Source: Bacteroidales bacterium (GTDB lineage: Bacteria > Bacteroidota > Bacteroidia > Bacteroidales > JAAUTT01). Taken from it: a stretch of 64,000 nt of DNA. The translations under genes were made by a program, and so were the position numbers. Below are positions 20,986 through 64,000 of the stretch, piece by piece. The notes under the pieces are model-generated. The model did no database searches and was not told the origin of the DNA. It saw nothing but the letters and a program-made list of their open reading frames with translations. Every line of letters starts with the position of its first letter. Within the stretch, counting starts at the first letter, position 1. Location of the stretch: assembly GCA_036261135.1 (NCBI GenBank), contig DATALJ010000108.1, positions 15,971-79,970 of the forward strand, written 5' to 3'.

Positions 20986-21027
20986 TTTTTTTCTTCATTT
21001 TCAAATTTCAAATTACCTCAATTCAAA

Positions 21028-22527: not shown

Positions 22528-22530
22528 AAA

Positions 22531-23958
22531 CTACTTAGGTAAAATGTTTATAGCATCGTATATAAGGCTGTTAAAAGCGGCAGGCGGATTTAAACCAAGC
22601 CACATAGCCGCAAACAACAGTAAATACTGGGTTAACGATTCCCATGGATTTATTTTAGGCACACTTCCTTCGTCAAATCCGACAGGTGGTGTGAACAGAA
22701 TCTTGAAAATGTTCTTACCAAAGGCCCAGATGATAATGGTAAGCAGCAAAAGCACCAGCAGCAAGACGATGATAAAATGACCTTCGAAAAGCGACCGGAA
22801 AATAAGAAATTCACTCACAAACATTCCTGAAGGAGGCATCGCGGTTGCGCTTATAAAACCAATTAATAGCACAATGGCGCCAGCAGGGTTATATTTAAAG
22901 TAGTTGCCTACGTGAAATATGCTCTTATTTTGAAAGACACGATACAACTGGTTGAACTGAAAGAACAGACTCGATTTAACAAAGGTATGAAGTACAATAT
23001 GCAGTAATGCCGCATAATAACCAATACCCCCTGCCGCAATTCCAAGCATTACAATACCCATGTGCTCAATGCCCGAGTAAGCCAGCATGCGTTTGATGTT
23101 CATCACCTTGGTCATGTAAACCGTAGCTACGAAAATAGAAAGTATAGCAGAAATAAGGATTACAAGGTTAGCCCAATGATGCAGCGGGGTATGGGCAACA
23201 ACTGCGTAGAAACGGAAGAACCCAACAAACCCCATATTCATAAGCACACTGGCAAGCAATGCTCCTACAGGTGCTGGCGCTGTATCTTTAGCATCGATAC
23301 CAGCCGTATACATAGGAACAAGACCCAACTTAGCTGTAAAACCAGTAAAAATAAACAGAAATGCCAGCCGCAACCAGAATGGATTCAGTTTGCTGCTATT
23401 GGCCATTAAGTTGGCGAACGAAAGATCATCGGACCCGGCATGCTGCAGCGATAGGCTTAGAAACAATATCCCAATAAAAATAAAGGTAACACTGATAGCA
23501 CAAATAAATACGTATTTCCAAACTCCCTCCAATGCTAACTTATTACGGTGATGATATATCAGAGCCGAAGCACTAAGCGTTGTTAGTTCGGTAAATATCC
23601 AGATTACCGCTATATGATTGGATAAGTAAGCTGCAGTAATAGATGTAATAAGAATGATAATGGATGAGAAATATATAGCCCTGGATTGAGGCGTTTCCTT
23701 ATGGGTTTCGATATATATATAACTATGAATAAGTGCAGGAATACTTACAATACTAAGCGTTATAAGAAGCAATAAGCCCAAAGAATCGATAGTGAAGTAT
23801 TCCAGCTCGGTGGCCTTGTGATGGTAGCAGCTGTAAATGGTAAATCCCAATTGCAATGCAGCAAAAGCCCCAATAAGTATATTATTCAAAAGCTTGTTCC
23901 GGTTAACGAAAAGCAAACCGCCAATTACAAATGCCCCTATTAAATAAATTGCAGTCAT
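22531..23958 (-). CDS. NuoN/HyfF-like antiporter-type membrane subunit
   Basis: 475 aa, about 14 TM helices, Mrp/NuoLMN-type proton-conducting membrane transporter pattern (...AKLGLVPMYTAGIDAKDTAPAPVGALLASVLMN...). Confidence 0.8.
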   Translation of the reverse strand: MTAIYLIGAFVIGGLLFVNRNKLLNNILIGAFAALQLGFTIYSCYHHKATELEYFTIDSLGLLLLITLSIVSIPALIHSYIYIETHKETPQSRAIYFSSIIILITSITAAYLSNHIAVIWIFTELTTLSASALIYHHRNKLALEGVWKYVFICAISVTFIFIGILFLSLSLQHAGSDDLSFANLMANSSKLNPFWLRLAFLFIFTGFTAKLGLVPMYTAGIDAKDTAPAPVGALLASVLMNMGFVGFFRFYAVVAHTPLHHWANLVILISAILSIFVATVYMTKVMNIKRMLAYSGIEHMGIVMLGIAAGGIGYYAALLHIVLHTFVKSSLFFQFNQLYRVFQNKSIFHVGNYFKYNPAGAIVLLIGFISATAMPPSGMFVSEFLIFRSLFEGHFIIVLLLVLLLLTIIIWAFGKNIFKILFTPPVGFDEGSVPKINPWESLTQYLLLFAAMWLGLNPPAAFNSLIYDAINILPK

Positions 23959-23973
23959 TATCTGTATTGTATA

Positions 23974-24606
23974 TTAATAATCTTTTAAATTGCTCAACTG
24001 GTCCACATCTACATCCTTAAACACGTCGCCAATCTTTTGTAAGAAGATACCCAGAATTAATACGCTGGCAAAGATGTCAAGCATTACGCCAAGGTTCACC
24101 AGCATGGGCATCTCATTACCTACAGCCAGCGAAAGTACAAACACGCCGTTTTCTATAATCAGGTAACCAATTACGTGTGTAATAATCTTTCTGCGTGATG
24201 CAATAAGGTACAATCCTGTAAACAGCGTAGAAAGCGCTACAATAAAGAATATCTTGTCCAGTTTGGTATCCTTAATGGAATTGGCGAGCAAAATCGTCAC
24301 AATAATAATAACCGTGGTAATTACCAGCGAAAGAAAATTTGGGAGGTAAGGCTCAGCCTCACGTGTAATATTATTCCGTTTCAACAGGTAACCCAAAAAG
24401 ATAGGGACAGCAAGCGCTTTGAACACAACCGTTTCCAAAAGTATGAGCACCAGGTTCAATGTATTGATCTCGTGCAGTTGAAGAAATGTAACTCCAAAGA
24501 GAATAAAGCCCTGTGCGGTTAGTATGTTGACATAGGTAATGATCCTGTTGGCAATTGAAAGGTACAACAGCGTAATAATAAATGTAATGAGCAAAACGTT
24601 TATCAT
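23974..24606 (-). CDS. HyfE-like small membrane subunit (NuoK-related)
   Basis: 210 aa, six to seven TM helices. It sits between the NuoH-like and NuoN-like genes, as hyfE does. Confidence 0.65.
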   Translation of the reverse strand: MINVLLITFIITLLYLSIANRIITYVNILTAQGFILFGVTFLQLHEINTLNLVLILLETVVFKALAVPIFLGYLLKRNNITREAEPYLPNFLSLVITTVIIIVTILLANSIKDTKLDKIFFIVALSTLFTGLYLIASRRKIITHVIGYLIIENGVFVLSLAVGNEMPMLVNLGVMLDIFASVLILGIFLQKIGDVFKDVDVDQLSNLKDY

Positions 24607-24618
24607 TTCTTCAATTTT

Positions 24619-25524
24619 TTAAATGAATTTTCCCAAAACCAACAGTACTCCGAAAAATATAAGCAGGCTCACCGACGAAAGCGCAAATATGAACTGTGCA
24701 TTATGGCTCATGCGGAAACGGGCCATAAATGATTCGATTAAACCTACTGATATGGCAAACAGCACCTGCGCCCCGGCGAATATGGCCAATGAAACAGGTA
24801 ACGAAAGTCCGCCAATAAAGAGATTCGTAATAATTGCACCATACATGGCAAATTTCAGATAGCCGGCAGACAGAATCAGTCCCAGATCGAAACCGCTATT
24901 ATCAAGTACAATCACCTCGTGTACCATAGTAAGCTCGAGATGTGTTTTTGGGTCGTCTATTGGCATTCGACTATTTTCGATCATCGCAATCATCACCAAC
25001 ACGAAGGTTGCAAGAGCACCCAACGCGTAAGTTATGTAACTACCGAGATGTAAAGCCGCAAATATGTCGTGAAAAGAAGTATAGCCAGTTAACAAAGCAA
25101 ATGAGCCCATAAGAATGAAGAATGCAGGCTCAGCAAACATCGAATACAATGCTTCGCGGCTGGCGCCCATGCCTTCGAAACTACTTCCCGTATCGAGTGC
25201 GGAAATGATAGTAAAAAACTTACCCAGGGCCAGTAAATAGGCGAAAAAGATGAAATCTCCGTCGAAACTGATCAGTCCTTTTTCACTTCCAAAGGGTACA
25301 GCGCATAAGGCCATTGCAACAGAAGAGAAATAAACAACCGGAGCCAGCTTAAACACAAAACTGGTGGTTTCGCTATATACAGCACCTTTCTTGAACAAAC
25401 GAACCACATCTTTCAAGGGCTGGAAAATGCCAGGGCCTTTCCTTCCCGCAGTAATGCTCTTGGTTCGGATAATTATTCCTGTGAAAAACAGGCTGGCTAT
25501 AAGAATTAATAATAAGCTCAGCAT
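24619..25524 (-). CDS. NuoH/HycD(HyfC)-like membrane subunit
   Basis: 301 aa. The N-terminus IIRTKSITAGRKGPGIFQPLKDVVRLFKKG matches the NuoH/HycD signature (GRxGPxxxQPxxDxxKLxxK). Confidence 0.8.
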   Translation of the reverse strand: MLSLLLILIASLFFTGIIIRTKSITAGRKGPGIFQPLKDVVRLFKKGAVYSETTSFVFKLAPVVYFSSVAMALCAVPFGSEKGLISFDGDFIFFAYLLALGKFFTIISALDTGSSFEGMGASREALYSMFAEPAFFILMGSFALLTGYTSFHDIFAALHLGSYITYALGALATFVLVMIAMIENSRMPIDDPKTHLELTMVHEVIVLDNSGFDLGLILSAGYLKFAMYGAIITNLFIGGLSLPVSLAIFAGAQVLFAISVGLIESFMARFRMSHNAQFIFALSSVSLLIFFGVLLVLGKFI

Positions 25525-25525
25525 C

Positions 25526-27553
25526 TTATATATGATTTAAAAAGTTCAAAAATACGGTTATCTTTTCGATCAGTAAGGGAACCACTATTACAGCGCCTAT
25601 AAACAATATCCCATAGAGGATGTAAATTTGAAGATTCCCATTTTGCAGGAAGGCAAAACGATCGATCGCTGTTTTTATCCATAATAGGGGTTTATCAATA
25701 AATATACGCTCAATTTTATCGTATGGGTGCGTTTCGTAATGTTTCGACGAGGGAAACACCTCTGTAATTTCAATTTCTTTTTTACCTATGTCTAAAACAG
25801 GCTTCACCAGTTTAGTATAGCTGCGCACAAATGAATTAGCTGTGTACTGTAGCTTGGTATCGGTAGTTTCATAAGCGCAACCCCAGGTAGGTTGTACTTC
25901 TACATCTCTGTTTTTTGTGGCAAGCTTACGTAATCCATATATTATAAGAATGAGTACAAGAAAGCCCGCACTGTACCAGTTAATGTCGAATAGTGAATCG
26001 ATAGCACCAACCTTGATCAGGTTCAGATTAAACACCCCCTCCTGAATAAAAAGACGGACGGGCTGTTGCAAGATCGTAATAAACAAAGTGGGGAACAATC
26101 CTATCAAAACAATCAATGTACCTATCAGATATAATGGGAAAAGCTGCCAGAATGTAACCTCCTTGATATGTTTATGCTCCTTGTGGCGCATGTTACCTAA
26201 AAATACAATTCCAAATGCCTTGGTAAAACAGAGTAAAGCAAGTCCTCCGATCATCACAAGCCCCAGAATGGCGAAAATAATTACAATTAACGATACCAGA
26301 CCGGCACTAAACAGCCAGTTGTAAATTCCACCATATATCAAAAATTCCGACACGAAGCCATTCAAAGGAGGCAATCCGCAAATAGCAAGAGCAGCAAGCA
26401 AAAACAAGAATGCCGTTTGGGGCATCTTCTTCACAAAGCCACCCATTCGCTCAATGTTCATGGAATGGATCTTCTGGTAAATATTTCCTGTACTAAAGAA
26501 CAGAAGCGACTTAAACAACGAATGATTCAGCGTATGCAGCAAAGCACCGGAAAATCCGAGTATAGCCATCCATTTATTGGCTTCGCCGATGCCTAAACAT
26601 CCAATACCTATTCCAATGCCAATTATTCCAATGTTTTCGATACTGTGATAAGCCAGTAACCTTTTCAAATTGTGCTGTATAATAGCTAACATCACTCCAT
26701 AAACGCCCGAAATAAGCGATACAAATAATATAATAAAACCAATACTGGTATAATCCGCTTTTATAAGCAATAACATGCGAAGAATACCATAAATTCCTAT
26801 CTTAATGATAACTCCAGACATCATACCCGATACATGCGAAGGAGCAGCAGGGTGTGCATAAGGCAGCCATGTATGAAAAGGAACAAATCCAGCCTTTATA
26901 GCAAAGCCAATAAAGAAACACAAGAAAAGAACTGTTCCTGCGAGTAGCGTCTGGCTCGAAGAAAAGGCTGTTATTGCAGAGAACTGATAACTACCCGTTT
27001 TATATGCAACAAATATGAAAGCCAGCATAAGGAACACAATAGAAATATGCGATTGCACCAGGTAATTGATACCTGCCTTTAATGTGTCCTCCTTGTAATG
27101 CTCAAAAATGACCAATACAAATGCCGAAACAGCCATTATTTCCCAGCAAAGAAGAAATGCCATCCCGTTTTGTACTCCACAAATGCTGATTAGCCCGGCA
27201 TGAGTAAGTATAAAAGCAATACAATGCAGTGTAATATTGTTTTTTTGGTTAATATACTGCCGCATATAATGAAAACCGTATATTCCACCGGTTATCATCG
27301 TAAAGTTAATAGTCAAAATAAACCATGCGGACAAGGCATCAACGGAAACAGGCACTTGGCCGAACGAAGTGGCACCTGTTAATACAGTTTCGAAGGTATG
27401 TCCCATCAAAGCCTGCGCTGCAACAAAAGAACTTAACAAAGCATTTGTAATTACAGCAACAAGCGCAATAATCCCCTTGCCTTTGGTTCCGGCAAACAGG
27501 ATAGCGCCTATAGCTATAAAAACGATGATTAAAAAAACACTAATCAATGCCAT
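25526..27553 (-). CDS. NuoL/HyfB-like antiporter-type membrane subunit (copy 2)
   Basis: 675 aa with TWLPYAHPAAPSHVSGMMSGVIIKIGIYGILR and ...HSLFKSLLFFSTG. C-terminal extension containing TWGCAY. Confidence 0.85.
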   Translation of the reverse strand: MALISVFLIIVFIAIGAILFAGTKGKGIIALVAVITNALLSSFVAAQALMGHTFETVLTGATSFGQVPVSVDALSAWFILTINFTMITGGIYGFHYMRQYINQKNNITLHCIAFILTHAGLISICGVQNGMAFLLCWEIMAVSAFVLVIFEHYKEDTLKAGINYLVQSHISIVFLMLAFIFVAYKTGSYQFSAITAFSSSQTLLAGTVLFLCFFIGFAIKAGFVPFHTWLPYAHPAAPSHVSGMMSGVIIKIGIYGILRMLLLIKADYTSIGFIILFVSLISGVYGVMLAIIQHNLKRLLAYHSIENIGIIGIGIGIGCLGIGEANKWMAILGFSGALLHTLNHSLFKSLLFFSTGNIYQKIHSMNIERMGGFVKKMPQTAFLFLLAALAICGLPPLNGFVSEFLIYGGIYNWLFSAGLVSLIVIIFAILGLVMIGGLALLCFTKAFGIVFLGNMRHKEHKHIKEVTFWQLFPLYLIGTLIVLIGLFPTLFITILQQPVRLFIQEGVFNLNLIKVGAIDSLFDINWYSAGFLVLILIIYGLRKLATKNRDVEVQPTWGCAYETTDTKLQYTANSFVRSYTKLVKPVLDIGKKEIEITEVFPSSKHYETHPYDKIERIFIDKPLLWIKTAIDRFAFLQNGNLQIYILYGILFIGAVIVVPLLIEKITVFLNFLNHI

Positions 27554-29568
27554 AAATTCAGTATAGTTCCAATGAATACAAAGAGCACAAACAAGATTCC
27601 ATAAAGGACATAAGCCTGTACCTTACCGTTTTGTACAAATTTAAAAAGGTCTATAAAATATTGAAGTCGATCCGTTACAGGATTGATCATGCGTTGTTCA
27701 AAAAAATCTAGATAATGAGAAGAATATCTGCGGGTTTTCGGAAAAATCTCATCGCTTTTCAGCTCGGTGTATGACTTTTTCTCAATCAATACAAAATGAA
27801 ACAACTTGCCCAGCGACTTGGAGAAAGATTTCCCGGTATATTGAATTTTAGACGTAGGCGCAACATAGCCACAGCCCCATGTTTGCCCATAATTAATTTC
27901 CTTAGCCACAGAAACACGCGAACGCAACAGGTATATCAATCCAACAAAAGCCAGGAACAACAGAGAGTATAAACTAATCTGCTGCATTACAGACGCATAG
28001 TGAAAGAAAGCTGGATTAGCCACCATATTTAAATTGGGGAATATGCCTCCAACTACCGTATTCATCAACTGAATGAAATAACCGGGAAGAAAAGCTACCA
28101 ACAGCATAAACCCAACAACAACATACTGAGGGACCAGCATAATCTTAGAAACTTCTTCCGGTTCGTGGTGTAAATGTTGGCGTTGGGTGCCAAGAAAAAT
28201 GGTACCAAAGGTTTTCGTAAAAGTAAGTATTGAGATACCACCTATAATGCTTAATCCGGCAAAGGACAGCACCATCAGGGTTATTTCTGCGATGTTCGAC
28301 GACTCAATGCCATTCAACAACCCGCAATAGATAATGAATTCAGAAATAAAACCATTAAATGGGGGAATTCCTCCAATGGCAATAGCGCCAAGCAGGAATA
28401 AGACTGCTGTTTGGGGCATTTTCTTTGCCAATCCGCCCAGTTTATCCATATCGCGTGTATGTGTTTGCTGGTACACAGCGCCAACAGAGAAAAACAACAG
28501 CGACTTAAACAGCGAATGGTTGAGTACATGCAACAAAGCGCCACCAAATCCCAGGAAAACTAGGAGATTATTGCTTCGGCCCAAGCCTATTAAACCAAGT
28601 CCCATTCCTATTCCAATAATACCAATATTTTCGATGGTACAATACGCCAACATCCTTTTAAAATCGCGATGTACCGCAGCGTTCATTATACCAAACAAGC
28701 CGGTTAATACGGATACCGAAAGAACTATCTCTCCAAGTAATATAAAATCTGACTTTACAAAGGTTATAACACGCAAAATACCGTAAATACCCATTTTTAC
28801 AATTACCCCCGACATTACCCCAGATACATGCGAAGGTGCAGCGGGATGTGCATGAGGCAACCATGTGTGTAACCCTATAAACCCGGCTTTTAAACCAAAA
28901 CCTGCAAAAAACAGAAGAAAAAGCCAGATATTGGCATTAGTGCCAAAAAACGTTCCTATTCCTTTAAAATCGAATGTTCCGGTTTGAAAATATACCCAGA
29001 TAAAAGCAATGGTAAGAAACACAACACTCAGGTGCATTTGGACCATATAGTTTATGCCTGCTTTCAATACCTTGGGGTCGGTATGCTCAAACAATACAAG
29101 AAACATAGATGATATGGACATGATTTCCCAAGCTACCAGAAAGGCGATGCTGTTTTGGATCATGCAAACCCAAAGCATAGAAGACTGGAAAAGCAAAAAG
29201 AAAATCCAATGTACTGTTAATATGGACCGCAAAGGTTTATACGCTTTTAAATAGCCTATACCATAAAGAATGCCAGCGGTAGAGATTAGGTTTATAATCA
29301 GAATGAACCATGCAGAGAGTGGATCAATTCGAAAAGGTATCACACCTAAAAAAGTGCCTCCGGCAACGTTCACTTCAATTCCATTGGAAATGATGCCCTG
29401 GATCGCAATATAACTTGTTATCAGTGCGTTTAAACCGGCAAATACAAAAGTTGAAATGGCTTTTACACGTTCAGGCAGTAGTATTACCAACGTAATACCT
29501 GCCACCAATACCCCAAAATGCAATAATAAAAGAAAGCTATTCAATTCAAAACCTTCAAATCCCATCAT
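27544..29568 (-). CDS. NuoL/HyfB-like antiporter-type membrane subunit (copy 1)
   Basis: 674 aa, a paralogue of the next gene (TWLPHAHPAAPSHVSGVMSGVIVKMGIYGILR; C-terminal TWGCGY). Overlaps the next gene by 10 nt. Confidence 0.85.
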   Translation of the reverse strand: MMGFEGFELNSFLLLLHFGVLVAGITLVILLPERVKAISTFVFAGLNALITSYIAIQGIISNGIEVNVAGGTFLGVIPFRIDPLSAWFILIINLISTAGILYGIGYLKAYKPLRSILTVHWIFFLLFQSSMLWVCMIQNSIAFLVAWEIMSISSMFLVLFEHTDPKVLKAGINYMVQMHLSVVFLTIAFIWVYFQTGTFDFKGIGTFFGTNANIWLFLLFFAGFGLKAGFIGLHTWLPHAHPAAPSHVSGVMSGVIVKMGIYGILRVITFVKSDFILLGEIVLSVSVLTGLFGIMNAAVHRDFKRMLAYCTIENIGIIGIGMGLGLIGLGRSNNLLVFLGFGGALLHVLNHSLFKSLLFFSVGAVYQQTHTRDMDKLGGLAKKMPQTAVLFLLGAIAIGGIPPFNGFISEFIIYCGLLNGIESSNIAEITLMVLSFAGLSIIGGISILTFTKTFGTIFLGTQRQHLHHEPEEVSKIMLVPQYVVVGFMLLVAFLPGYFIQLMNTVVGGIFPNLNMVANPAFFHYASVMQQISLYSLLFLAFVGLIYLLRSRVSVAKEINYGQTWGCGYVAPTSKIQYTGKSFSKSLGKLFHFVLIEKKSYTELKSDEIFPKTRRYSSHYLDFFEQRMINPVTDRLQYFIDLFKFVQNGKVQAYVLYGILFVLFVFIGTILNLWH

Positions 29569-48174: not shown

Positions 48175-49182
48175 CTAAACCTGTGTTGTAATAATATCAA
48201 CTATAGCCGAAGCCCATTCATCCGAATCATTCAGGCTTTTAACCAGTGTTAAATTGCGCCCGCCGTGCTCTATAAACAGTTGCTTATAATCCATTTCAAT
48301 TTCTACAATGGTTTCGAGGCAATCGGCAACAAACGATGGAGCTACAACGAGGATATTGGCGTTTCCTTTTGAAGCCTGCTCTTTAATAAGCTCGTCCGTA
48401 AACGGACTAAGCCAGTTACGCGTCAGGCGTGACTGAAATGCAACTGAAAATTTATGATCAGGAATGTTCAACGTTTTCACCAAGAGCCTTGTAGTTTCGT
48501 AGCAATTTGCTTTGTAGCACCATGTGCCACATTCAGGCATAGACTGTTCACATGAACAACCGTTGCAATTGTTCTCCGGATGTATCTTACGTATCTGGCT
48601 CAAGGGCAATCCATGATACGAGAAAATAATATGATCAAACCATTGCGGATTATACTTTCCAATTTGCGAGGAAAAAGCACTGATAAAAGCAGGATGGCTG
48701 TAAAAACGATCAATCACCCGTATGTCAGGAATAGCTTCCCATTTCTTTACTATTTCAAAAACTTTCTCGGTTACAGAGCCTGTTGTAGAGGATGCATACT
48801 GAGGGAACAAGGGCAATACAATAATTTCATCAGTATTTCGCTTCTTTAATTGCGCCAATCCCTCCTTTAATGAAGGCTCTCCGTACCTCATGCAGGCGTA
48901 AACATCGTATTTTCCTGCAAGTAGTTGGCTCAGCTTATCCTTAAGGCTTAATAAATGCAACAGAAGAGGAGATCCTTCGGGTGTCCAGAGCTTTTTATAG
49001 AGCGCTGTCGACTTCATTACCCGGAACGGGATAATTATCAGGTTTACTAGTATTTTCCGGAAAAGCCAAGGAATATCAATTACTCGCTTATCGTTCAAAA
49101 AAGCAGTAAGGAACTTCCGAACAGCCTTGGGTTCAGGCTTTTCTGGCGTTCCGACATTTACAAGCAATAGCGCTTTTTTCAT
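48175..49182 (-). CDS. hemH: ferrochelatase
   Basis: MKKALLLVNVGTPEKPEPKAVRKFLTAFLNDKRVIDIPW... and ...FSYHGLP are typical HemH signatures. Confidence 0.9.
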   Translation of the reverse strand: MKKALLLVNVGTPEKPEPKAVRKFLTAFLNDKRVIDIPWLFRKILVNLIIIPFRVMKSTALYKKLWTPEGSPLLLHLLSLKDKLSQLLAGKYDVYACMRYGEPSLKEGLAQLKKRNTDEIIVLPLFPQYASSTTGSVTEKVFEIVKKWEAIPDIRVIDRFYSHPAFISAFSSQIGKYNPQWFDHIIFSYHGLPLSQIRKIHPENNCNGCSCEQSMPECGTWCYKANCYETTRLLVKTLNIPDHKFSVAFQSRLTRNWLSPFTDELIKEQASKGNANILVVAPSFVADCLETIVEIEMDYKQLFIEHGGRNLTLVKSLNDSDEWASAIVDIITTQV

Positions 49183-49289
49183 CCCTTTTAATATTTATAT
49201 ATTTAATACCACCGCTTTTATACAATAAAGAAGGTAGGGTTATTTAGTTCTGAATCAACACCATATCGTTTACTACGAAGCTCAGTCCT

Positions 49290-49423
49290 CCTTGGCGAAG
49301 GGGGCCGGGGGGATTGAAGCATTATAATCAACTAAGTTCAATATCTATTTTACCAAAAAAAATAAGAGATAAATAGATATTGTTGTCCAACAAAATCAAT
49401 CCCCCTGCCCCCCTTCGCCAAGG
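49290..49423. repeat. nested inverted repeat (28-nt G/C-run arms around a 12-bp AT-rich inner hairpin)
   Basis: The outer arms CCTTGGCGAAGGGGGCCGGGGGGATTGA (49290-49317) and TCAATCCCCCTGCCCCCCTTCGCCAAGG (49396-49423) are complementary at 26 of 28 positions. The inner hairpin CAATATCTATTT (49339-49350) / AAATAGATATTG (49371-49382) is perfect. Confidence 0.85.
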
Positions 49424-49466
49424 GGGAAACCGACGTACCATGTATCAATATAAGTAAGACCTGATT

Positions 49467-50846
49467 TCAACCCCAATTCATATTAATCAAGCTATCTGCT
49501 ATTTGTACGGCCTGTTTAACCCTGTCGGACATACCAATGCCATTGCGGATATTCCCAGCCAGTATAAGACCTGGAAACCGGCTCTGAATATCTTCGATAG
49601 CCTGAAAACGTTGTCCGCTGCTTAGTTCGTATTGTGGAATAGCGTTTTCGTGCCGGAATATCTTAATCAAATCGGGCTTTTGCTCGCATTGCAAAGTCTC
49701 TTTTAATTCATTAAGAACTATTTGCGTAATTTCTTCATTCGATTTGGTAATAATTTCAGGCTTTTTAATGCCTCCCAAAAACATAGAAAGCAACGCTCCG
49801 CCCTCAGGTGCACGGTTTTCGAAAAGCGACGACGGAAAAAGAATACCCAGGCAGTTTCTTTTCTCCAATGAAGGAACCAGACCACCAAATGCATTCAGGG
49901 GTTTGCCTGTCCATGTTTTATAACCAACCGCTACCTGAACGACTTTCGCGTAATTCAAATTGGTAATCGGCTGCAAATCCTTATCATCTAAAAAGGAGAA
50001 CATTCCAGGCAAACAATTACCGGGAACGGTACTCACTACATATTGGGATTGAAGCTGTATATTCGAACTCTCCTTGTTTGTAAAACTACAAACATAGCCA
50101 TTATCGTCTTTATGCACTTTTATGCCATGGCAATCTGTTATAACGTGCTGCTCTCCTATTCCTGTGTACAAAGCCTGAATTAAATGCTTCAAACCTCCTC
50201 TAGCTGAAAAAACCTCTCGCGTCACTCGTTTTTCCAATGCGGTTTTTGGCAACTTTCTCTTTTTCATCGAGCCTTTTACAAAGCTTCCGTAGTTATTTTC
50301 GAGCGCATACAGCTTAGGCAGGGCAAATCGGGTAACCAACCGGTGCGGATCGCCGGCGTAAACACCAGAGATAAAAGGATCGACTGCGTAATCAAGAAAA
50401 CTACGACCCATACGACGGATAACCATGTCCGCTACTGTTTCGTCAGGGTTTGTGCCCGGTTTGCGAAAAGGCTCGCCCAGAATTCTGAACTTATCTTTCA
50501 TTGTAAATAAGGGCGTTGAAATTGCCGATAGTAACCCGGATGGCAATGCGTTCCATTTCCCATCTTTCCATATCCAGCGGAATTTGGCTTCGGGACCCGG
50601 AGTTTCAACATTCAAGGTACCTTTCAGGCTATCGAATAAAGCAACCAATTCGGGAGAACCTATAACACCAGTATTGGGGCCGGTTTCATATGTAAAGCCA
50701 TTTTCTGTATTTGTGTTAATAACACCTCCAACATGGCTGCTTCTTTCTAATACTTTTACCTCTTTGCCTGCCTTGCGCAGCCAATACGCAAGCGATAATC
50801 CTGTAAGGCCTGCACCAATTATGACTATGTCTGTTTTAGTTTCCAT
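49467..50846 (-). CDS. hemY: protoporphyrinogen/coproporphyrinogen oxidase, FAD-dependent (HemY type)
   Basis: N-terminal FAD fold DIVIIGAGLTGLSLAYWL. 459 aa. C-terminus GLILAGNIRNGIGMSDRV. Confidence 0.8.
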   Translation of the reverse strand: METKTDIVIIGAGLTGLSLAYWLRKAGKEVKVLERSSHVGGVINTNTENGFTYETGPNTGVIGSPELVALFDSLKGTLNVETPGPEAKFRWIWKDGKWNALPSGLLSAISTPLFTMKDKFRILGEPFRKPGTNPDETVADMVIRRMGRSFLDYAVDPFISGVYAGDPHRLVTRFALPKLYALENNYGSFVKGSMKKRKLPKTALEKRVTREVFSARGGLKHLIQALYTGIGEQHVITDCHGIKVHKDDNGYVCSFTNKESSNIQLQSQYVVSTVPGNCLPGMFSFLDDKDLQPITNLNYAKVVQVAVGYKTWTGKPLNAFGGLVPSLEKRNCLGILFPSSLFENRAPEGGALLSMFLGGIKKPEIITKSNEEITQIVLNELKETLQCEQKPDLIKIFRHENAIPQYELSSGQRFQAIEDIQSRFPGLILAGNIRNGIGMSDRVKQAVQIADSLINMNWG

Positions 50847-50847
50847 C

Positions 50848-52227
50848 TTATACCGTTTTTGAATACAGGTTACTCTGCTGCCTGTAAGCCGGATCGAACA
50901 ATGCCGCGATATTCCTTATAAAGAGTTCTCCTGTTTCGGAAACCAGGATCTTTTCATCTGTATATTCCAGAAGCCCATCCTCAATAAAGGGCGTTAACTT
51001 ATCCACTTTAAAGCCAGTGATGACATAAAAAGCCTCTTTTGTTATTTCATGAGCCTTGCAAAACGAATCAATATCAAGATAGTTATTACACATAACCGAT
51101 GTAATCAACTCTTTTATTACTTTCTCGCTTTTACTGAGGATATATCCCTTTTCAATGGGTAATTTATCGGTATCCATCAGCGATATGTAGAGGTCCACCT
51201 CTTTTACATTCTGAATAAAGCCATCCTCTAGCTGACTAATAGCCGAAACGCCGAAAGCATAAACCTGTCCGGTAGTGCGCCGTGTACAGTAACCCTGAAA
51301 GTTACGGTGCAGCAGATTTTGACGCAATGCCAGATTCAATTCGTCATTGGGCAACACATAATGATCCAATCCCACAGGTAAATAACCCGCAGCTTTAAGT
51401 ATTTCCCGGGATGCAAGGAACATATCCATTTTCTCTTCTGCACCCGGCAGACCTTTCTTTGCCAGTATTTCCTGGTGCTTCTTTAGCCAGGGTACATGTG
51501 CGTATGAGAAAGTTACCAAGCGGTCCGGCCTTACCTCTATTGCCTGCGATATAGTTTCAGAGAAGCTTTCGACCGTTTGACCCGGCAAACCATAAATAAA
51601 ATCAAGATTTACGGTGTTTGCACTATTCAACTGCTTGATAAAATGGACCAGTTCAGGAACTGGAATAGCTGAAGGCTCACGGTTTACTGTTTTCAGCACC
51701 GATGTATCAAAATCCTGAATACCCAGGCTGAACCGGTTGAACCCAGCTTTAACCAAATGCTCAATATATTGAAAATCTAAGTATGCAGGATTGCATTCAA
51801 TAGCAATTTCAGGATTTTCAATAAAAGTAAAGTTACGGGCAAATAAATCTACGATTTCTCCGAGATAATGCGCATCAATGGCATTGGGAGTGCCTCCGCC
51901 AAAATGGATTTGAGAAACCTTGCGGTTTTTATCCAGCATTGGTATTACATTTTCGATTTCCTTTTTTAGCGCCTTAATGTAGTTCTCTACTTCAGCGCCT
52001 TTTTTTAAGGCACAGGCATTACAACCACAGTAAAAGCAAATCTTTTTACAAAAAGGAATATGAATGTAAAACCCGATATGAGCGGGTTGTCCGGCATTCG
52101 ACCGTTCTACCATGCTGATATAATCAGCATCTGCCAGCTTATCGTGAAAATAATTTGCAGGTGGATAGCTGGTATAGCGGGGTACCGGATAGTTATATTT
52201 ATCTATTAAAGACTTAGTCAATTTCAT
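50848..52227 (-). CDS. hemN: oxygen-independent coproporphyrinogen III oxidase (radical SAM)
   Basis: 459 aa with the radical-SAM motif YIHIPFCKKICFYCGCN (CxxxCxxC) and HemN-length N- and C-terminal domains. Confidence 0.85.
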   Translation of the reverse strand: MKLTKSLIDKYNYPVPRYTSYPPANYFHDKLADADYISMVERSNAGQPAHIGFYIHIPFCKKICFYCGCNACALKKGAEVENYIKALKKEIENVIPMLDKNRKVSQIHFGGGTPNAIDAHYLGEIVDLFARNFTFIENPEIAIECNPAYLDFQYIEHLVKAGFNRFSLGIQDFDTSVLKTVNREPSAIPVPELVHFIKQLNSANTVNLDFIYGLPGQTVESFSETISQAIEVRPDRLVTFSYAHVPWLKKHQEILAKKGLPGAEEKMDMFLASREILKAAGYLPVGLDHYVLPNDELNLALRQNLLHRNFQGYCTRRTTGQVYAFGVSAISQLEDGFIQNVKEVDLYISLMDTDKLPIEKGYILSKSEKVIKELITSVMCNNYLDIDSFCKAHEITKEAFYVITGFKVDKLTPFIEDGLLEYTDEKILVSETGELFIRNIAALFDPAYRQQSNLYSKTV

Positions 52228-59143: not shown

Positions 59144-59521
59144 ATGATAAAGATTCTTCTCATCATAGGCACAGGCAGCTTTGTAGGAGGTATTTCGCGG
59201 TTTCTGGCTTCCAGATTCGTGCAAAACACCGTGATATCTGCTTTTCCTTATGGAACATTTGTTGTAAACATACTCGGATGCTTTCTTATTGGCTTGTTTT
59301 ACGGTATATCGGAACGTGGCAGTATAATGAGCAATGAATGGCGTATATTCCTCACCGTTGGTTTCTGTGGCGGCTTTACAACCTTCTCTACCTTCGCCAA
59401 TGAGAATCTGGCATTACTCAAAGACGGAAGCTTCTTCCATTTTGCGCTGTATACCAGTTTGAGCGTTTTTATTGGTCTTATGGCCACCTATCTGGGCAAT
59501 TTAACCACCAAAATATTTTAG
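59144..59521 (+). CDS. crcB: fluoride ion channel CrcB (Fluc)
   Basis: MIKILLIIGTGSFVGGISRF... and ...GFCGGFTTFSTF are typical of CrcB. The start at ATG 59144 is preferred over 59051. Confidence 0.9.
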   Translation: MIKILLIIGTGSFVGGISRFLASRFVQNTVISAFPYGTFVVNILGCFLIGLFYGISERGSIMSNEWRIFLTVGFCGGFTTFSTFANENLALLKDGSFFHFALYTSLSVFIGLMATYLGNLTTKIF

Positions 59522-59523
59522 TT

Positions 59524-59877
59524 ATGGAAATAAAAGGAGAAGCGAAGCTATTACGCATTTTCATTAGCAATACCGACAATTTCAAACATACCCCACTGTA
59601 CGAAACCATTGTTTATGCGGCTAAGCGATATGGTATGGCCGGAGCAACAGTTCTAAAAGGCACCATGGGATTTGGCTCCAGCAATATAGTGCGTTCGGCA
59701 AAATTCTGGGAACTCACCGAAAAGCTCCCCTTAGTGATTGAAATTATTGATGAAGCCGACAAAATCGACAAATTCACAGAAAAGATTCTTCCCTGGTTTG
59801 ACAAACTGCGGTACGGATGTATGATTACCGTTGAAAAAGCAAATATAGTGCTGTATAAGAAGGGGACAAAAGCATAA
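59524..59877 (+). CDS. DUF190 domain protein (PII-like, commonly crcB-associated)
   Basis: 117 aa with KLLRIFISNTDNFKHTPLYETIVYAAKRYGMAGATVLKGTMGFG, matching the DUF190 pattern. Starts 2 nt after crcB. Confidence 0.8.
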   Translation: MEIKGEAKLLRIFISNTDNFKHTPLYETIVYAAKRYGMAGATVLKGTMGFGSSNIVRSAKFWELTEKLPLVIEIIDEADKIDKFTEKILPWFDKLRYGCMITVEKANIVLYKKGTKA

Positions 59878-61146: not shown

Positions 61147-61941
61147 TTAAAAGCAATAAAACAAACCAATTCTAAAGGCATTGGAATACATTTTCAATTC
61201 AACAGGTTTCGTATATTTTACATGCTGAAATTCATAGCTCAATTGCAGATTAAACTTCTCTGCAAGCAATGTTTGAAAGGCTATATGGGCATTGAATGAA
61301 AGATTATCCGTTAAGAATACCGTTTTGCCAAACGTTTTCATATCCCAGCTGTTTGTGGTATAGTTGTAATCGCCACTCGGTGAATATTCCGGTCGGGAAA
61401 CATTACTGATCAAAGGAATAAACAACCTTGCTGTTATAAATTTGCGGGAAGCAAAGGAATATTCAACCTGCGAAGCCAGATCGAACGAATGACTCCAGTA
61501 CCAAGAAGTTATTGCCCGCACATTGGGAATGGTTAAATACGTGTAGCTATAATCGGACCGATTGAAAAACGATTGAATGGAACCTCCGGCGTATATATGA
61601 AGCCTTTCATTGCTACGAAATAAATTAGTCATTAACGCATACCTGACTCTTCCGGCGTAATGCTGTGTGGTGAAGTTATCGGGCAAAGCTTTGAGCTTGT
61701 TATACGCAAAAGACACCTCTGCAAAGTGAATATAGACGTCCGATTGGTGTATAAATTGAAGCGACGGAGCAATGCCATTGCTTCTATAAATCAATGGTGA
61801 TGCATGCTGATCCTGTAAATGAAGATTGCTGCCACCAAAACAAATTCCCAAATAGTTGAGGGCACTCTGTGCTAAAACATTACATGAATTCCAAACCAAA
61901 ACAGCAATAAGAGCAAGCGATACAAACGTTTTACGTGTCAT
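61147..61941 (-). CDS. hypothetical outer-membrane beta-barrel-like protein
   Basis: Signal peptide MTRKTFVSLALIAVLVWNSCNVLAQ, Tyr/Ser-rich strand pattern and a C-terminal RIGLFYCF. Its stop directly abuts the S41 start. Confidence 0.45.
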   Translation of the reverse strand: MTRKTFVSLALIAVLVWNSCNVLAQSALNYLGICFGGSNLHLQDQHASPLIYRSNGIAPSLQFIHQSDVYIHFAEVSFAYNKLKALPDNFTTQHYAGRVRYALMTNLFRSNERLHIYAGGSIQSFFNRSDYSYTYLTIPNVRAITSWYWSHSFDLASQVEYSFASRKFITARLFIPLISNVSRPEYSPSGDYNYTTNSWDMKTFGKTVFLTDNLSFNAHIAFQTLLAEKFNLQLSYEFQHVKYTKPVELKMYSNAFRIGLFYCF

Positions 61942-62155
61942 GGAGGCAAATTAAGATAATTGCTAGCGGCTATTTGAAGCTATGTGCCAAAGGTATAATT
62001 ATTTAAGATATCGCAAAATGATTGATACTATAATTAATAGATTAAACAAAAGACCATCGCAAGTCAAAGCTATTAGCTCGTGACTCTCATTATGGAATTC
62101 ACACTTTCTTAAAAAGTTCCAACAAATTATTTTCGCATCCTAGCATGGTTTGTAT

Positions 62156-62163
62156 TATATTTG
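62156..62163 (+). promoter_or_regulatory. candidate Bacteroides-type -7 box TATATTTG
   Basis: Matches TAnnTTTG, 35 nt upstream of the ATG at 62199. It lies inside the longer ORF-track call, which argues against the 62145 start. Confidence 0.45.
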
Positions 62164-62198
62164 TCGCCGAAAATAATTCAAATCCAAATTATAATTAT

Positions 62199-62891
62199 AT
62201 GAGTTTCACACACGAAGTTGAAGGAATGATCTGCCTTGCCCAAGGCGCGAATCATGGCCCTGCCCCAATTCCCGAAGAAGGTCGTTGGGTAAAGGCAAAA
62301 GAAGTTAAAGATATCTCGGGGTTGACCCACGGTGTTGGCTGGTGTGCTCCACAACAAGGCGCTTGCAAGCTCACATTAAACGTAAAAGACGGTATTATCC
62401 AGGAAGCATTGGTAGAAACTATCGGTTGCACCGGTATGACTCACTCTGCTGCTATGGCTGCCGAAATTCTACCCAACAAAACCATTCTCGAAGCATTGAA
62501 CACTGACTTGGTTTGCGATGCAATCAACACAGCAATGCGCGAATTATTCCTGCAAATCGTTTACGGACGTACACAAACTGCATTCTCTGAAGGCGGTCTG
62601 CCTATTGGTGCTGGTCTCGAAGACTTAGGTAAAGGCCTTCGTGGTGTTACCGGTACATTGTATGGAACATCGGCTAAAGGTCCTCGCTACCTCGAAATGG
62701 CCGAAGGTTATATCACCAAAATCGGTATCGACAAAGACAACGAAATTATCGGTTACGAATTCGTTAGCCTTGGCCGTATGATGGATATGATCAAAACCGG
62801 TATGGATGCTAATGAAGCATTAAAGAAAGCATCTGGCAAATATGGCCGTATAGAAGATGCAGTAAAAGTTATTGACCCACGTAAAGAATAG
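62199..62891 (+). CDS. NifU/IscU-N-terminal-like protein with a ~100-aa C-terminal extension
   Basis: Three Cys contexts parallel IscU: GVGWCAPQQGAC, ETIGCTGMTHSAAMAAEIL and DLVCDAINTAM. A Gly-rich extension follows. Confidence 0.65.
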   Translation: MSFTHEVEGMICLAQGANHGPAPIPEEGRWVKAKEVKDISGLTHGVGWCAPQQGACKLTLNVKDGIIQEALVETIGCTGMTHSAAMAAEILPNKTILEALNTDLVCDAINTAMRELFLQIVYGRTQTAFSEGGLPIGAGLEDLGKGLRGVTGTLYGTSAKGPRYLEMAEGYITKIGIDKDNEIIGYEFVSLGRMMDMIKTGMDANEALKKASGKYGRIEDAVKVIDPRKE

Positions 62892-62903
62892 GAGGAACTG
62901 AAG

Positions 62904-63908
62904 ATGTCACAAAACGCACAATTATTCGAAAGCTACGGCCGCCGTATTAACCAAATCAACAAAGTCCTCAATTCTTACGGAATTTCTTCAATTGAAGAAG
63001 CTAAAAAGATTTGCGACGACAAAGGTGTTGACGTTTACAAGATTGTAAAAGACATTCAACCTATTGCATTTGAAAACGCAATGTGGGCTTACATTACAGG
63101 CGCTGCTATTGCTATCAAAAAAGGTCAGAAGAATGCTGCTGAAATCGCTGAAACATTAGGCGAAGGCTTACAGGCTTTCTGTATCCCTGGCTCAGTAGCC
63201 GACGACCGTAAGGTAGGTCTTGGCCATGGTAACCTCGCGGCGATGTTGCTTCGCGAAGAAACCAAATGTTTCGCATTCCTCGCTGGTCACGAATCATTCG
63301 CTGCTGCCGAAGGTGCTATTGGTATTGCTAAATCGGCAAACAAAGTACGTAAAGAACCACTCCGCGTTATTCTTAACGGTTTAGGTAAGGACGCAGCTAA
63401 GATCATTGCTCGTATAAACGGCTTTACTTATGTTCAAACCCAGTTCGACTATGCTACCGGCGAAGTAAAAGAAGTAAAACGTACAGCTTACTCAACCGGC
63501 GACCGTGCTAAGGTTAACTGCTATGGTGCTGACGATGTTCGCGAAGGTGTTGCTATTTTCCACAAGGAAGGTGTAGACGTATCGATTACCGGTAACTCTA
63601 CCAACCCTACCCGCTTCCAACACCCTGTAGCTGGTACTTACAAGAAAGAATGTATCGAACAAGGCAAGAAATACTTCTCTGTAGCTTCTGGTGGCGGTAC
63701 AGGACGTACATTACATCCTGATAACATGGCTGCTGGTCCTGCTTCGTATGGTATGACTGATACAATGGGTCGCATGCACTCTGATGCTCAGTTTGCCGGT
63801 TCTTCTTCAGTTCCTGCTCACGTTGAAATGATGGGTCTTATCGGTATGGGTAACAACCCAATGGTAGGCGCATCTGTAGCTGTAGCTGTAGCATTATCTC
63901 AGGCTTAA
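62904..63908 (+). CDS. GGGtGRT-family protein (function unknown)
   Basis: 334 aa containing the name-giving motif SVASGGGTGRTLHPDNMAAGPASYGMTD and a C-terminal GMGNNPMVGASVAVAVA. Confidence 0.8.
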   Translation: MSQNAQLFESYGRRINQINKVLNSYGISSIEEAKKICDDKGVDVYKIVKDIQPIAFENAMWAYITGAAIAIKKGQKNAAEIAETLGEGLQAFCIPGSVADDRKVGLGHGNLAAMLLREETKCFAFLAGHESFAAAEGAIGIAKSANKVRKEPLRVILNGLGKDAAKIIARINGFTYVQTQFDYATGEVKEVKRTAYSTGDRAKVNCYGADDVREGVAIFHKEGVDVSITGNSTNPTRFQHPVAGTYKKECIEQGKKYFSVASGGGTGRTLHPDNMAAGPASYGMTDTMGRMHSDAQFAGSSSVPAHVEMMGLIGMGNNPMVGASVAVAVALSQA

Positions 63909-63942
63909 ATAATACACATAGTAAACACGGAGGCACTGAGGC

Positions 63943-63971
63943 ACGGAGATCATCCGGCTCTTTGTCTCCGT
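63943..63971 (+). terminator. stem-loop followed by a T-rich run
   Basis: ACGGAGA-15nt-TCTCCGT followed by TTTATTTGT. Confidence 0.5.
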
Positions 63972-64000
63972 TTTATTTGTACCAACTGTCTTCCAAGTAA

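Follow-up and report, generated by a model that had tools for sequence, protein, structure and literature searches.

The window, a 64,000-nt stretch of DNA from an uncultured Bacteroidales bacterium, carries a two-gene unit that is closed by a strong hairpin and comprises the following features.

62156 to 62163, forward strand: candidate Bacteroidota -7 promoter element TATATTTG (consensus TAnnTTTG), 36 nt 5' of the gene A start
62199 to 62891, forward strand: gene A, 230 aa, predicted IscU-fold protein
62890 to 62895, forward strand: Shine-Dalgarno-like AGGAGG, read from the sequence, overlapping the gene A stop codon, with the gene B ATG 8 nt further on
62904 to 63908, forward strand: gene B, 334 aa, GGGtGRT protein (PF14057)
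63916 to 63980, forward strand: intrinsic-terminator-like hairpin followed by a T-run, 3' of gene B

Both open reading frames were recovered where the preliminary description had placed them, and the 12-nt spacing it gave is exact, the gap running from 62892 to 62903. From the ATG at 62199, gene A encodes 230 amino acids, the length of nearly all of its homologues (83–95% identical), and a longer open reading frame starting at 62145 was for this reason ruled out as the gene. The terminator that had been noted 3' of gene B is real, with a minimum free energy of -28.6 kcal/mol (z = -4.71; none of 200 shuffles was equally good) and a T-run immediately after it; a simple terminator scan of the region missed it because its loop exceeds 8 nt. 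The promoter suggested at 62156 fared less well: TATATTTG is indeed present there, inside a 257-nt divergent intergenic region, but the window shows no excess of TAnnTTTG (53 occurrences against 76 expected), so that the element is a positional candidate only. Motifs resembling TAnnTTTG also occur upstream in related Bacteroidales loci. A sigma-70 promoter scan gave nothing above chance, and a search for riboswitches and other RNA elements returned no Rfam match at E ≤ 1 within 61800–64000. Upstream of gene B, a GGAG, GAGG or AGGA core lies within 20 nt of the start in 52 of 57 loci.

The pairing of the two genes, which had been described as conserved, proved to be so without exception, gene A immediately preceding gene B, in the same orientation, in 78/78 testable loci, that is, those with room upstream in an 80-locus set from about ten phyla. 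The pair is found in Bacteroidota, Bacillota, Spirochaetota, Myxococcota, Desulfobacterota, Verrucomicrobiota, Acidobacteriota, Actinomycetota and Lentisphaerota, as well as on a Vibrio chromid, and its distribution is confined to anaerobes. The products are 70–93% identical across phyla, with about half of all positions invariant, and A and B show correlated pairwise distances (r = 0.65). A divergent clade also keeps the pair, and here the two partners have diverged by similar amounts (50% for A, 52–58% for B). The main clade has no third conserved gene, since the 111 immediate neighbours contain 193 Pfam families with at most four instances of any one, and neither HscAB nor a ferredoxin partner is conserved in this immediate-neighbour scan. 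Long database matches that resembled natural A–B fusions were all assembly chimeras or internal duplications.

The codon usage of the pair is extreme within the window, for which the comparison set was 47 genes with no ribosomal protein genes among them. The effective number of codons is 42.2 for gene A and 38.2 for gene B, the two lowest values of the 47 (next 45.0), and the fraction of C-ending codons among the two-fold pyrimidine sets and Ile is 0.64 in each gene, the top two values (next 0.54). Consistent use of GGT, GCT, CGT, GAA and AAA had been noted by eye; the first four hold, with GGT at 0.59 versus 0.30 and GCT at 0.59 versus 0.31 for pair and window (Fisher p 1e-3 to 7e-7), CGT or CGC as the only Arg codons (21/21) and GAA for every Glu (38/38), but AAA is unbiased (0.68 versus 0.63). 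AGA, AGG, CGA, CGG and ATA are avoided in both genes, and GC3 is unremarkable (0.36–0.39 versus about 0.42 in the window). The bias is thus of the translational-selection type. Together with proteomics of orthologues (PMC11204068, PMC7035244, PMC5395762), it bears out the suggestion that the pair looks highly expressed; gut and rumen proteomes contain both proteins in large amounts, comparable to those of glycolytic enzymes and ribosomal proteins (PMC11204068, PMC7035244).

Gene B carries the GGGTGRT motif reported for it at residues 263–269 and matches PF14057 over its full length (651.7 bits, cut-off 27, E 2.4e-196, profile positions 1–327 of 327), its 334 residues falling within the ~330–350 typical of the family; all of 100 aligned homologues have the motif unchanged. 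The protein divides into a helical N-domain (~11–116), an alpha/beta domain (~122–261), a segment rich in Gly, Ser, Met, His and Asp (263–311) and a C-terminal helix (317–333). In the AF2 monomer model (pLDDT 79.5, pTM 0.83), residues 263–311 score below 50, so that the most invariant 49 residues of the protein, with 94% of positions unchanged across 56 species, are unstructured in the model. No structural relative of gene B was found in the PDB by sequence or by Foldseek, which gave no match at E ≤ 1e-3 and TM values below 0.25; a ferritin match in the PDB profile search (E 0.68) was discarded as chance level. Nor did either protein match any Pfam or NCBIfam family beyond PF14057 and a weak NifU_N when sub-domains were tested to E 10. 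The gene B fold is therefore an orphan.

Gene A consists of an IscU-like core (~41–122), an invariant Gly-rich linker (123–151) and a C-terminal alpha/beta domain (152–230). The region beyond the core had been described as a Gly-rich tail of ~100 residues, which is accurate for residues 123–165 (26% Gly) but not for 166–230, where a folded alpha/beta domain is predicted. As in gene B, the most conserved segment of gene A is the one that the monomer AF2 model leaves unordered, and these conserved but unordered segments are, as far as predicted models allow, a hint of an interface or active site. By sequence, the relation to the NifU/IscU family is distant: PF01592 NifU_N scores 19.4 bits (gathering cut-off 22), TIGR01999 18.8 (192.4) and TIGR03419 23.1 (187.9), and the Vibrio homologue narrowly exceeds the PF01592 cut-off at 26.5. 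A Foldseek search with a low-confidence model (pLDDT 61.7) returned IscU and SufU as best matches, with IscU of several species at probability 0.9–1.0 and TM(target) ~0.5; ~96 columns align at an rmsd of 2.8–3.0 Å, covering the three-stranded sheet and helices of IscU/NifU_N. On the evidence of this model, gene A is an IscU-fold protein.

The residues that make IscU a scaffold are nevertheless only partly retained. Three IscU-type cysteine contexts had been proposed; two of them stand, since the GC(T/S)G and C-terminal contexts place C77 and C106 in line with IscU Cys63 and Cys106, whereas the position of Cys37 is occupied by Gln53. In HMMER alignments to IscU, this Gln is flanked within the same loop by the invariant C49 and C56, a CX6C pair that brings the number of invariant cysteines to four. 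Both clades keep H44, C49, C56, C77, C106 and D107 without change. In further contrast to IscU, the aligned positions of Asp39 and His105 read Ala55 and Val105, gene A has NTDLVC before C106 where IscU has LPPVKIHC and thus lacks the LPPVK chaperone (HscA) motif, and a conserved C-terminal part of 108 residues is added. Gene A is, moreover, always tied to GGGtGRT and has no linkage to a cysteine desulfurase: IscS, NifS and SufS are absent from the recurrent neighbours of the 80 loci, occur at most once among the 111 neighbours scanned, and do not adjoin the pair in the window. The lack of Asp39, His105 and LPPVK, the fourth invariant Cys and the near-complete absence of an adjacent desulfurase speak against the earlier view that gene A is functionally scaffold-like. 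Judged from the conserved residues, a putative permanent subunit that carries a cluster is a better fit to these features than a scaffold of the transient kind.

Orthologues of the pair are present in the literature. BT0174 (annotated NifU) and BT0173 (GGGtGRT) of Bacteroides thetaiotaomicron, published as one locus, and F502_05017/F502_05012 of Clostridium pasteurianum comprise these two families side by side, arranged as in the window; they differ from the window pair in organism, and the match identifies the family rather than the mechanism. The preliminary description was correct that the pair lacks an assigned function, as was still the case in 2025 (PMC12078515), but it went too far in presenting the system as undescribed, given that the BT0173–BT0174 operon and its high expression had already been reported. 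The pair is an unknown that has already been catalogued rather than a new family. Iron depletion lowers BT0173–74 11 to 12.8-fold (PMC10434189), and iron excess in C. pasteurianum raises the GGGtGRT protein 7.1-fold and the NifU-related protein next to it 2.4 to 3.7-fold (PMC5395762), so that published work documents iron induction of orthologues in two phyla. When B. thetaiotaomicron was screened for mutants in which glucose no longer represses Cur, the only hits were pfkA, BT0173-4 and a peptidase that controls the level of pyruvate kinase; insertion mutants in BT0173-4 show normal growth on glucose and the signalling effect is just 2-fold, from which it follows that any glycolytic role is redundant or conditional (bioRxiv 10.64898/2026.04.10.717545).

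A further indication comes from gene neighbourhoods. In the divergent clade, the pair lies with a His_Phos_1 gene in 6/6 contexts and, wherever there is room upstream, is accompanied by an ApgM-type phosphoglycerate mutase that scores above the NF003104 equivalog cut-off; a bacterial iPGM is additionally present in one context and a HAD phosphatase in one. Within ±6 kb of the 80 main-clade loci there are only three genes of the PGM superfamily, an iPGM (locus L061) and two His_Phos_1 genes (L018 and L067), all of them adjacent and co-directional, for which we roughly estimate a chance of ~0.005. The His_Phos_1 neighbours score below every equivalog cut-off and so could be phosphatases with other substrates. 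These neighbourhoods point to phosphorylated three-carbon metabolism, a link whose main basis is a divergent clade that may have been neofunctionalised, together with 3 of ~78 main-clade loci. Also near the divergent cluster are a 2-TM protein, an HTH protein and a transposase. The cluster was separately considered as a defence system and rejected, as PADLOC gave no match for A, B, the 2-TM protein, ApgM or His_Phos_1.

We tentatively put forward the following account, to which we assign somewhat less than an even chance of being right: the pair would form the two subunits of one abundant, iron-dependent Fe-S metalloprotein of anaerobes, likely an enzyme. The complex would be cytoplasmic and probably oxygen-sensitive, produced when iron is plentiful and spared when it is scarce. 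Gene A would represent an IscU-fold scaffold turned into a permanent subunit, with an Fe-S cluster held by C49, C56, C77 and C106 and possibly also by H44 or D107. Residues 263–311 of gene B and the gene A linker 123–151 may take on an ordered structure only upon complex formation, around the cluster and the substrate, and together could make up the active site. Such a complex is more probably an enzyme than a biogenesis factor, although we infer both the enzymatic nature of the pair and its binding of Fe-S, and iron-responsive expression would fit an assembly or storage role too. The likeliest field of action would be phosphorylated three-carbon acids beside phosphoglycerate mutase, in lower glycolysis/gluconeogenesis or a branch of it.

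Analogous to this arrangement are the two-subunit [4Fe-4S] hydro-lyases (L-serine dehydratase beta/alpha, class I fumarase and tartrate dehydratase), which consist of small and large subunits encoded by adjacent genes, are oxygen-sensitive and iron-dependent, and act on small hydroxy or phospho acids. Genes A and B likewise are adjacent and encode a small and a large protein, similar in size to those subunits. The analogy is functional only and implies no membership: in the hydro-lyases the cluster ligands reside in the large subunit, whereas the conserved cysteines of the pair are in the small, IscU-like one, and the SDH_alpha/beta, Fumerase and TtdA/B profiles match neither gene A nor gene B, with sub-domains tested to E 10. 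A more far-reaching version of the proposal, which we consider unlikely, is that the pair constitutes a very widespread, hitherto unrecognised Fe-S enzyme of new fold in the central carbon metabolism of anaerobes, providing an iron-dependent step or bypass on phosphoglycerate-type substrates with its cluster on a domesticated IscU-fold subunit; if true, its reach would include the dominant gut Bacteroidales and Clostridia.

Few proteins of unassigned function in anaerobic bacteria rival this pair in conservation and abundance. A function for it would supply a missing piece of core physiology in the main gut bacteria, be it a central-metabolism enzyme or a new way of handling Fe-S, and would also reveal that the IscU fold can be put to a new use, that of a permanent subunit. 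With the neighbourhoods containing phosphoglycerate mutase and the glucose-signalling phenotype from the literature, the candidates narrow to a short, testable list of substrates.

The foremost alternative is that the pair is an anaerobe module for Fe-S assembly, storage or delivery, with gene A as a derived scaffold or carrier and the GGGtGRT protein as its partner, donating iron or sulfide or serving as chaperone or cluster reservoir; glycolytic signalling would then be affected indirectly, by way of Fe-S enzymes. We regard this as rather unlikely, even though the IscU fold and conserved cysteines of gene A, the restriction of the pair to anaerobes and the iron-dependent expression of orthologues would all agree with it, as would the lack of enzyme-like homology in GGGtGRT. 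E. coli also reduces iscSUA when iron is scarce, and Bacteroides is generally held to depend on SUF and to have no ISC, so that an additional IscU-like protein could fill a role there. Against it, the IscU features of lability and hand-over (Asp39, His105, LPPVK) are missing and a fourth Cys is present, and the neighbour scan shows no conserved desulfurase, HscAB or ferredoxin partner. Proteins as abundant as ribosomal proteins and glycolytic enzymes are more easily understood as a stoichiometric enzyme or a store than as an assembly catalyst, and the phosphoglycerate-mutase neighbourhoods are left unexplained.

It is also conceivable, but quite improbable, that the pair acts in sulfur relay or thiolation, gene A serving as a SufU-like, zinc-bound persulfide carrier and the SGGGTGRT loop of the GGGtGRT protein binding a nucleotide or phosphate to activate a substrate into which sulfur is then inserted. 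Four cysteines in an IscU/SufU fold could ligate zinc instead of Fe-S, and SufU, the zinc-dependent sulfur-transfer protein of Bacillota, is of the same fold class, appears among the Foldseek matches of gene A (probability 0.4–0.8) and shares a Cys plus Asp ligand set, here including C106–D107. Gene A nonetheless has no significant sequence similarity to SufU and no adjoining SufS or SufBCD, and neither a sulfurtransferase nor a desulfurase is kept near the pair. In gene B, the SxxxxGRT that follows a beta-strand presumably resembles a P-loop or PP-loop, and there are weak fold matches to USP/AANH-like and SRP-GTPase alpha/beta domains (probability <0.5); all of the fold matches fall short of significance by the Foldseek values given above, and no gene B sub-domain matches a Pfam nucleotide-binding family. 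A 12-fold repression under iron limitation is, in addition, not obvious for a zinc protein.

Finally, a horizontally spread cassette that retains the codon usage of a donor genome and whose products act independently is very improbable and already largely refuted: phylum-crossing placements in a tree of A+B and a Shine-Dalgarno sequence that is unusual for Bacteroidota would be in its favour, but the bias is of the translational-selection type at an unremarkable GC3, the orthologues have been measured as abundant proteins, and 78/78 adjacency with co-divergence over about ten phyla is unexpected for unrelated functions. Two apparent signs of mobility were set aside on inspection, the 'phage' records that contain the gene being unannotated faecal metagenome contigs and the plasmid matches being chromids or large secondary replicons. 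In the A+B tree, the clade of the window groups with Myxococcota and Desulfobacterota, a copy from Muribaculaceae joins Erysipelotrichia, and one from Bacteroidaceae falls inside Lachnospiraceae.

Gene A, encoding an IscU-like protein, and gene B, encoding a GGGtGRT protein, lie co-directionally in the final 1.9 kb of the window, and both ORFs are found, 12 nt apart, where the preliminary description had placed them.

Features of the pair
62199-62891, + strand: gene A, 230-aa ORF
62904-63908, + strand: gene B, 334-aa ORF
62156, + strand: candidate -7 promoter element TATATTTG, fitting TAnnTTTG
62890-62895, + strand: strong Shine-Dalgarno-like AGGAGG, overlapping the stop of gene A and 8 nt ahead of the start of gene B

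The next ORF upstream (61147-61941) points the other way, which makes 61942-62198 (257 nt) a divergent promoter region. A strong hairpin followed by a T-run lies 3' of gene B (-28.6 kcal/mol, z = -4.7, equalled by 0 of 200 shuffles), as had been proposed, and together with the divergent neighbour this indicates that the pair is its own transcription unit. TAnnTTTG is the Bacteroidota -7 consensus, as in Bacteroides promoters. The promoter previously ascribed to the pair fits it, but occurrences of the motif in the window, 53 against 76 expected, show no enrichment, and TATATTTG is therefore a positional candidate only. An Rfam search of the pair's region matched no family. Bacteroidota are not generally known to use Shine-Dalgarno pairing; of 57 loci, 52 keep a Shine-Dalgarno-like core upstream of gene B, among them those of Prevotella, Muribaculaceae and Bacteroidaceae, and the core is absent from Alistipes, Paludibacter and Akkermansia. 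The other neighbours (trehalase, CrcB, DUF190, S41 peptidase and the 264-aa protein of 61147-61941, without Pfam match) are functionally unrelated to the pair. This last protein, on the - strand, has a signal-peptide-like N terminus and a C-terminal aromatic residue, and is possibly an outer-membrane β-barrel. The crcB-DUF190 genes, at 59144-59877, lie ~2.3 kb upstream of the pair and are directly upstream of it in the Prolixibacteraceae locus L003 (4379-5124), a local synteny confined to close relatives.

Among the 47 ORF-based gene calls of the window, a comparison set that holds no ribosomal protein gene, the pair shows the strongest codon bias on every measure (Fisher p 1e-3 to 7e-7; S-type index 1.23). 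Its effective numbers of codons, 42.2 and 38.2, are the two lowest (next 45.0; typical ~55), and the C-ending fraction of two-fold pyrimidine and Ile codons, 0.64 in each gene, is the highest (next 0.54). Glutamate is encoded by GAA in 38 of 38 cases and arginine by CGT or CGC only, while GGT and GCT are used at about twice background. The earlier reading of a GGT/GCT/CGT/GAA preference is thus upheld, but no bias towards AAA was found in the pair. GC3 is unremarkable, so the bias is of the translational-selection type rather than a sign of foreign composition. Published data on orthologues, independent of the codon analysis, agree with high expression: the GGGtGRT and 'NifU' proteins are highly expressed in vivo in the chicken caecum, in Bacteroidetes, Megamonas, Blautia and others (PMC11204068), recur in rumen metaproteomes (PMC7035244; PMC12643325), and both give spots on 2-D gels of Clostridium pasteurianum (PMC5395762).

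The family assignment of gene B is secure, with a full-length match to Pfam PF14057 'GGGtGRT protein' (E 2.4e-196); NCBIfam holds no model for it. The AlphaFold2 model, built from a 100-sequence alignment including the divergent clade (GGGtGRT proteins 52-58% identical to that of the window), is confident (pLDDT 79.5, pTM 0.83) and comprises a helical N-domain and an α/β domain. Foldseek against the PDB returned nothing at E ≤ 1e-3, with TM-scores all below 0.25, the family profile matched no PDB sequence, and the sub-domains matched no Pfam family besides PF14057; within reach of these searches, GGGtGRT is an orphan fold. Conservation peaks in residues 263-311 (GGGTGRTLHPDNMAAGPASYGMTDTMGRMHSDAQFAGSSSVPAHVEMMG), where 94% of positions are invariant across 56 species and where the model stays below pLDDT 50.

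For gene A, the IscU fold assignment holds, while strict IscU/NifU family membership does not. Profile searches gave 19.4 bits against NifU_N (cut-off 22) and 18.8 bits against TIGR01999 (cut-off 192), and by sequence the top PDB hits are IscU proteins (E 0.003-0.3). Although the AlphaFold2 model is of low confidence (pLDDT 61.7), Foldseek with its core (41-122) places IscU of several species at the top (probability 0.9-1.0, ~96 columns, 2.8-3.0 Å). HMMER alignments pair C77 and C106 with IscU Cys63 and Cys106 and put Gln53 at the Cys37 position, so that two of the three IscU-type cysteine contexts previously described are positional matches; instead of Cys37, this loop is flanked by a CX6C pair (C49, C56). 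All homologues examined, down to a clade at only 50% identity, share C49, C56, C77, C106, H44 and D107. The 'Gly-rich tail' of ~100 aa is in fact a further 108 residues, without Pfam match, of which a linker is Gly-rich (26% Gly over residues 123-165) and the rest a predicted α/β domain. Linker residues 123-151 are invariant and unordered in the monomer model, and we infer that they and gene B 263-311 may become ordered only in contact with each other or around a cofactor. That the pair serves as an Fe-S assembly, storage or delivery module would suit the IscU fold, and we consider it unlikely. The Asp39 and His105 positions and the LPPVK chaperone motif of IscU are not kept, and the 'scaffold' label of the preliminary description does not match the sequence of gene A.

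Pairing is strict. GGGtGRT occurs in at least 598 species (scan of one genome per species), and in each of the 78 loci with room gene A immediately precedes gene B in the same orientation, usually with a gap of 10-40 nt, in line with the claim of a conserved pair. The 80 retained loci, with gene B 78-93% identical, span Bacteroidota, Bacillota, Treponema, Myxococcota, Desulfobacterota (including Geobacter and Syntrophobacter), Akkermansia, Holophaga, Eggerthellaceae and Lentisphaeria; the pair is also found on a Vibrio chromid. The best 120 homologues are ≥93% identical for gene B and 83-95% for gene A, roughly half the positions of each protein do not vary across 56 species, and the pairwise distances of A correlate with those of B (r = 0.65). 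A library of 1.8 billion representatives of 50%-identity clusters contains the family as essentially one full-length cluster and one divergent clade at ~53% identity. Long database matches were rejected as natural A/B fusions: P0002, P0121, P0241, P0251, P0277 and P0317, retrieved proteins mistakable for domain fusions, are assembly artefacts that carry internal tandem duplications or are joined to unrelated proteins. Otherwise the genes next to the pair are random (193 Pfam families in 111 neighbours, each in ≤4 loci), and the recurrent families include no cysteine desulfurase; a SufU-like sulfur relay in which GGGtGRT would bind a nucleotide, and which would also draw on the IscU-like fold, appears distinctly improbable. 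The neighbour-joining tree is coherent at family level with several phylum-crossing placements, the window's own clade lying beside Myxococcota and Desulfobacterota, indicating slow evolution with some horizontal transfer. A coincidental or transferred cassette of no special meaning, for which such placements might speak, is very hard to credit beside the unbroken pairing.

No paper in the literature searched assigns the pair a function, and a 2025 paper calls its role unclear (PMC12078515). Expression follows iron: the B. thetaiotaomicron orthologues BT0173-BT0174 drop 11 to 12.8-fold when iron is depleted (PMC10434189), and in C. pasteurianum iron excess raises GGGtGRT 7.1-fold and its NifU-related neighbour 2.4 to 3.7-fold (PMC5395762). 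A B. thetaiotaomicron transposon screen for loss of Cur glucose repression yielded three loci only, namely pfkA, an M16 peptidase acting via pyruvate kinase abundance, and BT0173-4, whose mutants show a 2-fold effect on repression and normal growth (bioRxiv 10.64898/2026.04.10.717545). In a virulence-factor screen of Clostridium innocuum, GGGtGRT was among the highest-scoring 'putative virulence factors' (bioRxiv 10.1101/2022.06.29.498201), implying that some virulence database holds a GGGtGRT entry.

A new lead comes from the divergent clade, which keeps a gene-A-like partner overlapping the GGGtGRT start, within a conserved gene cluster in 6 of 6 independent contexts.

Divergent-clade contexts (locus, positions)
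L081: 2997-7606
L084: 1581-7589
L086: 391-6859
L088: 301-5405
L092: 118-3526
L094: 742-6041

The order is HTH regulator, ApgM-type phosphoglycerate mutase (passing the NF003104 equivalog cut-off), A-like gene, GGGtGRT, a 317-332-aa protein and a His_Phos_1 protein of the dPGM/phosphatase superfamily; a bacterial iPGM is also present in one context, and a HAD phosphatase in one. The 317-332-aa protein, without Pfam, NCBIfam, PADLOC or PDB match, appears from its sequence to have two N-terminal membrane helices. For the main, window-type clade, tblastn of the 80 loci ±6 kb found only three phosphoglycerate-mutase-superfamily genes, all directly adjoining the pair and co-directional (an upstream iPGM in a Lachnospiraceae genome; His_Phos_1 in [Eubacterium] hominis and Thermodesulfatator), with a roughly estimated chance of ~0.005 that all three would be immediate neighbours. 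Circumstantially, these neighbourhoods and the Cur screen point to phosphorylated three-carbon metabolism.

We tentatively favour an obligate two-subunit metalloprotein, in which the IscU-fold subunit would hold a permanent Fe-S cluster on its four invariant cysteines and GGGtGRT would provide the substrate site. The complex would be abundant, oxygen-sensitive and produced in iron-rich conditions, and would probably be an enzyme next to phosphoglycerate mutase. A two-subunit complex with an Fe-S cofactor we rate at a little under even chances; that its substrate is of the class next to phosphoglycerate mutase is unlikely. The preliminary description was accurate in observation and largely right in interpretation, the caveats being the scaffold label and that the pair is an already catalogued, occasionally remarked-upon unknown, of which the window copy is a further member. 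The question has become more testable through the strict pairing, the orphan fold, a candidate active site that is invariant but resists modelling, the response to iron in two phyla and the phosphoglycerate-mutase neighbourhood.

Elsewhere in the window, a gene run at 20233-29568 (- strand) for a complex-I-like or Mrp-type membrane module, with a fused 30-kDa/49-kDa-type subunit (21028-22527, - strand) and large proton-antiporter-like subunits (25526-29568), resembles a membrane-bound hydrogenase or formate-hydrogenlyase-type complex. A possible late haem-biosynthesis row at 48175-52227 (- strand) comprises genes for ferrochelatase, for a flavin amine-oxidase-type protein that may be HemY-like and for a radical-SAM protein that may be HemN-like, with a TonB-receptor-sized ORF further on.
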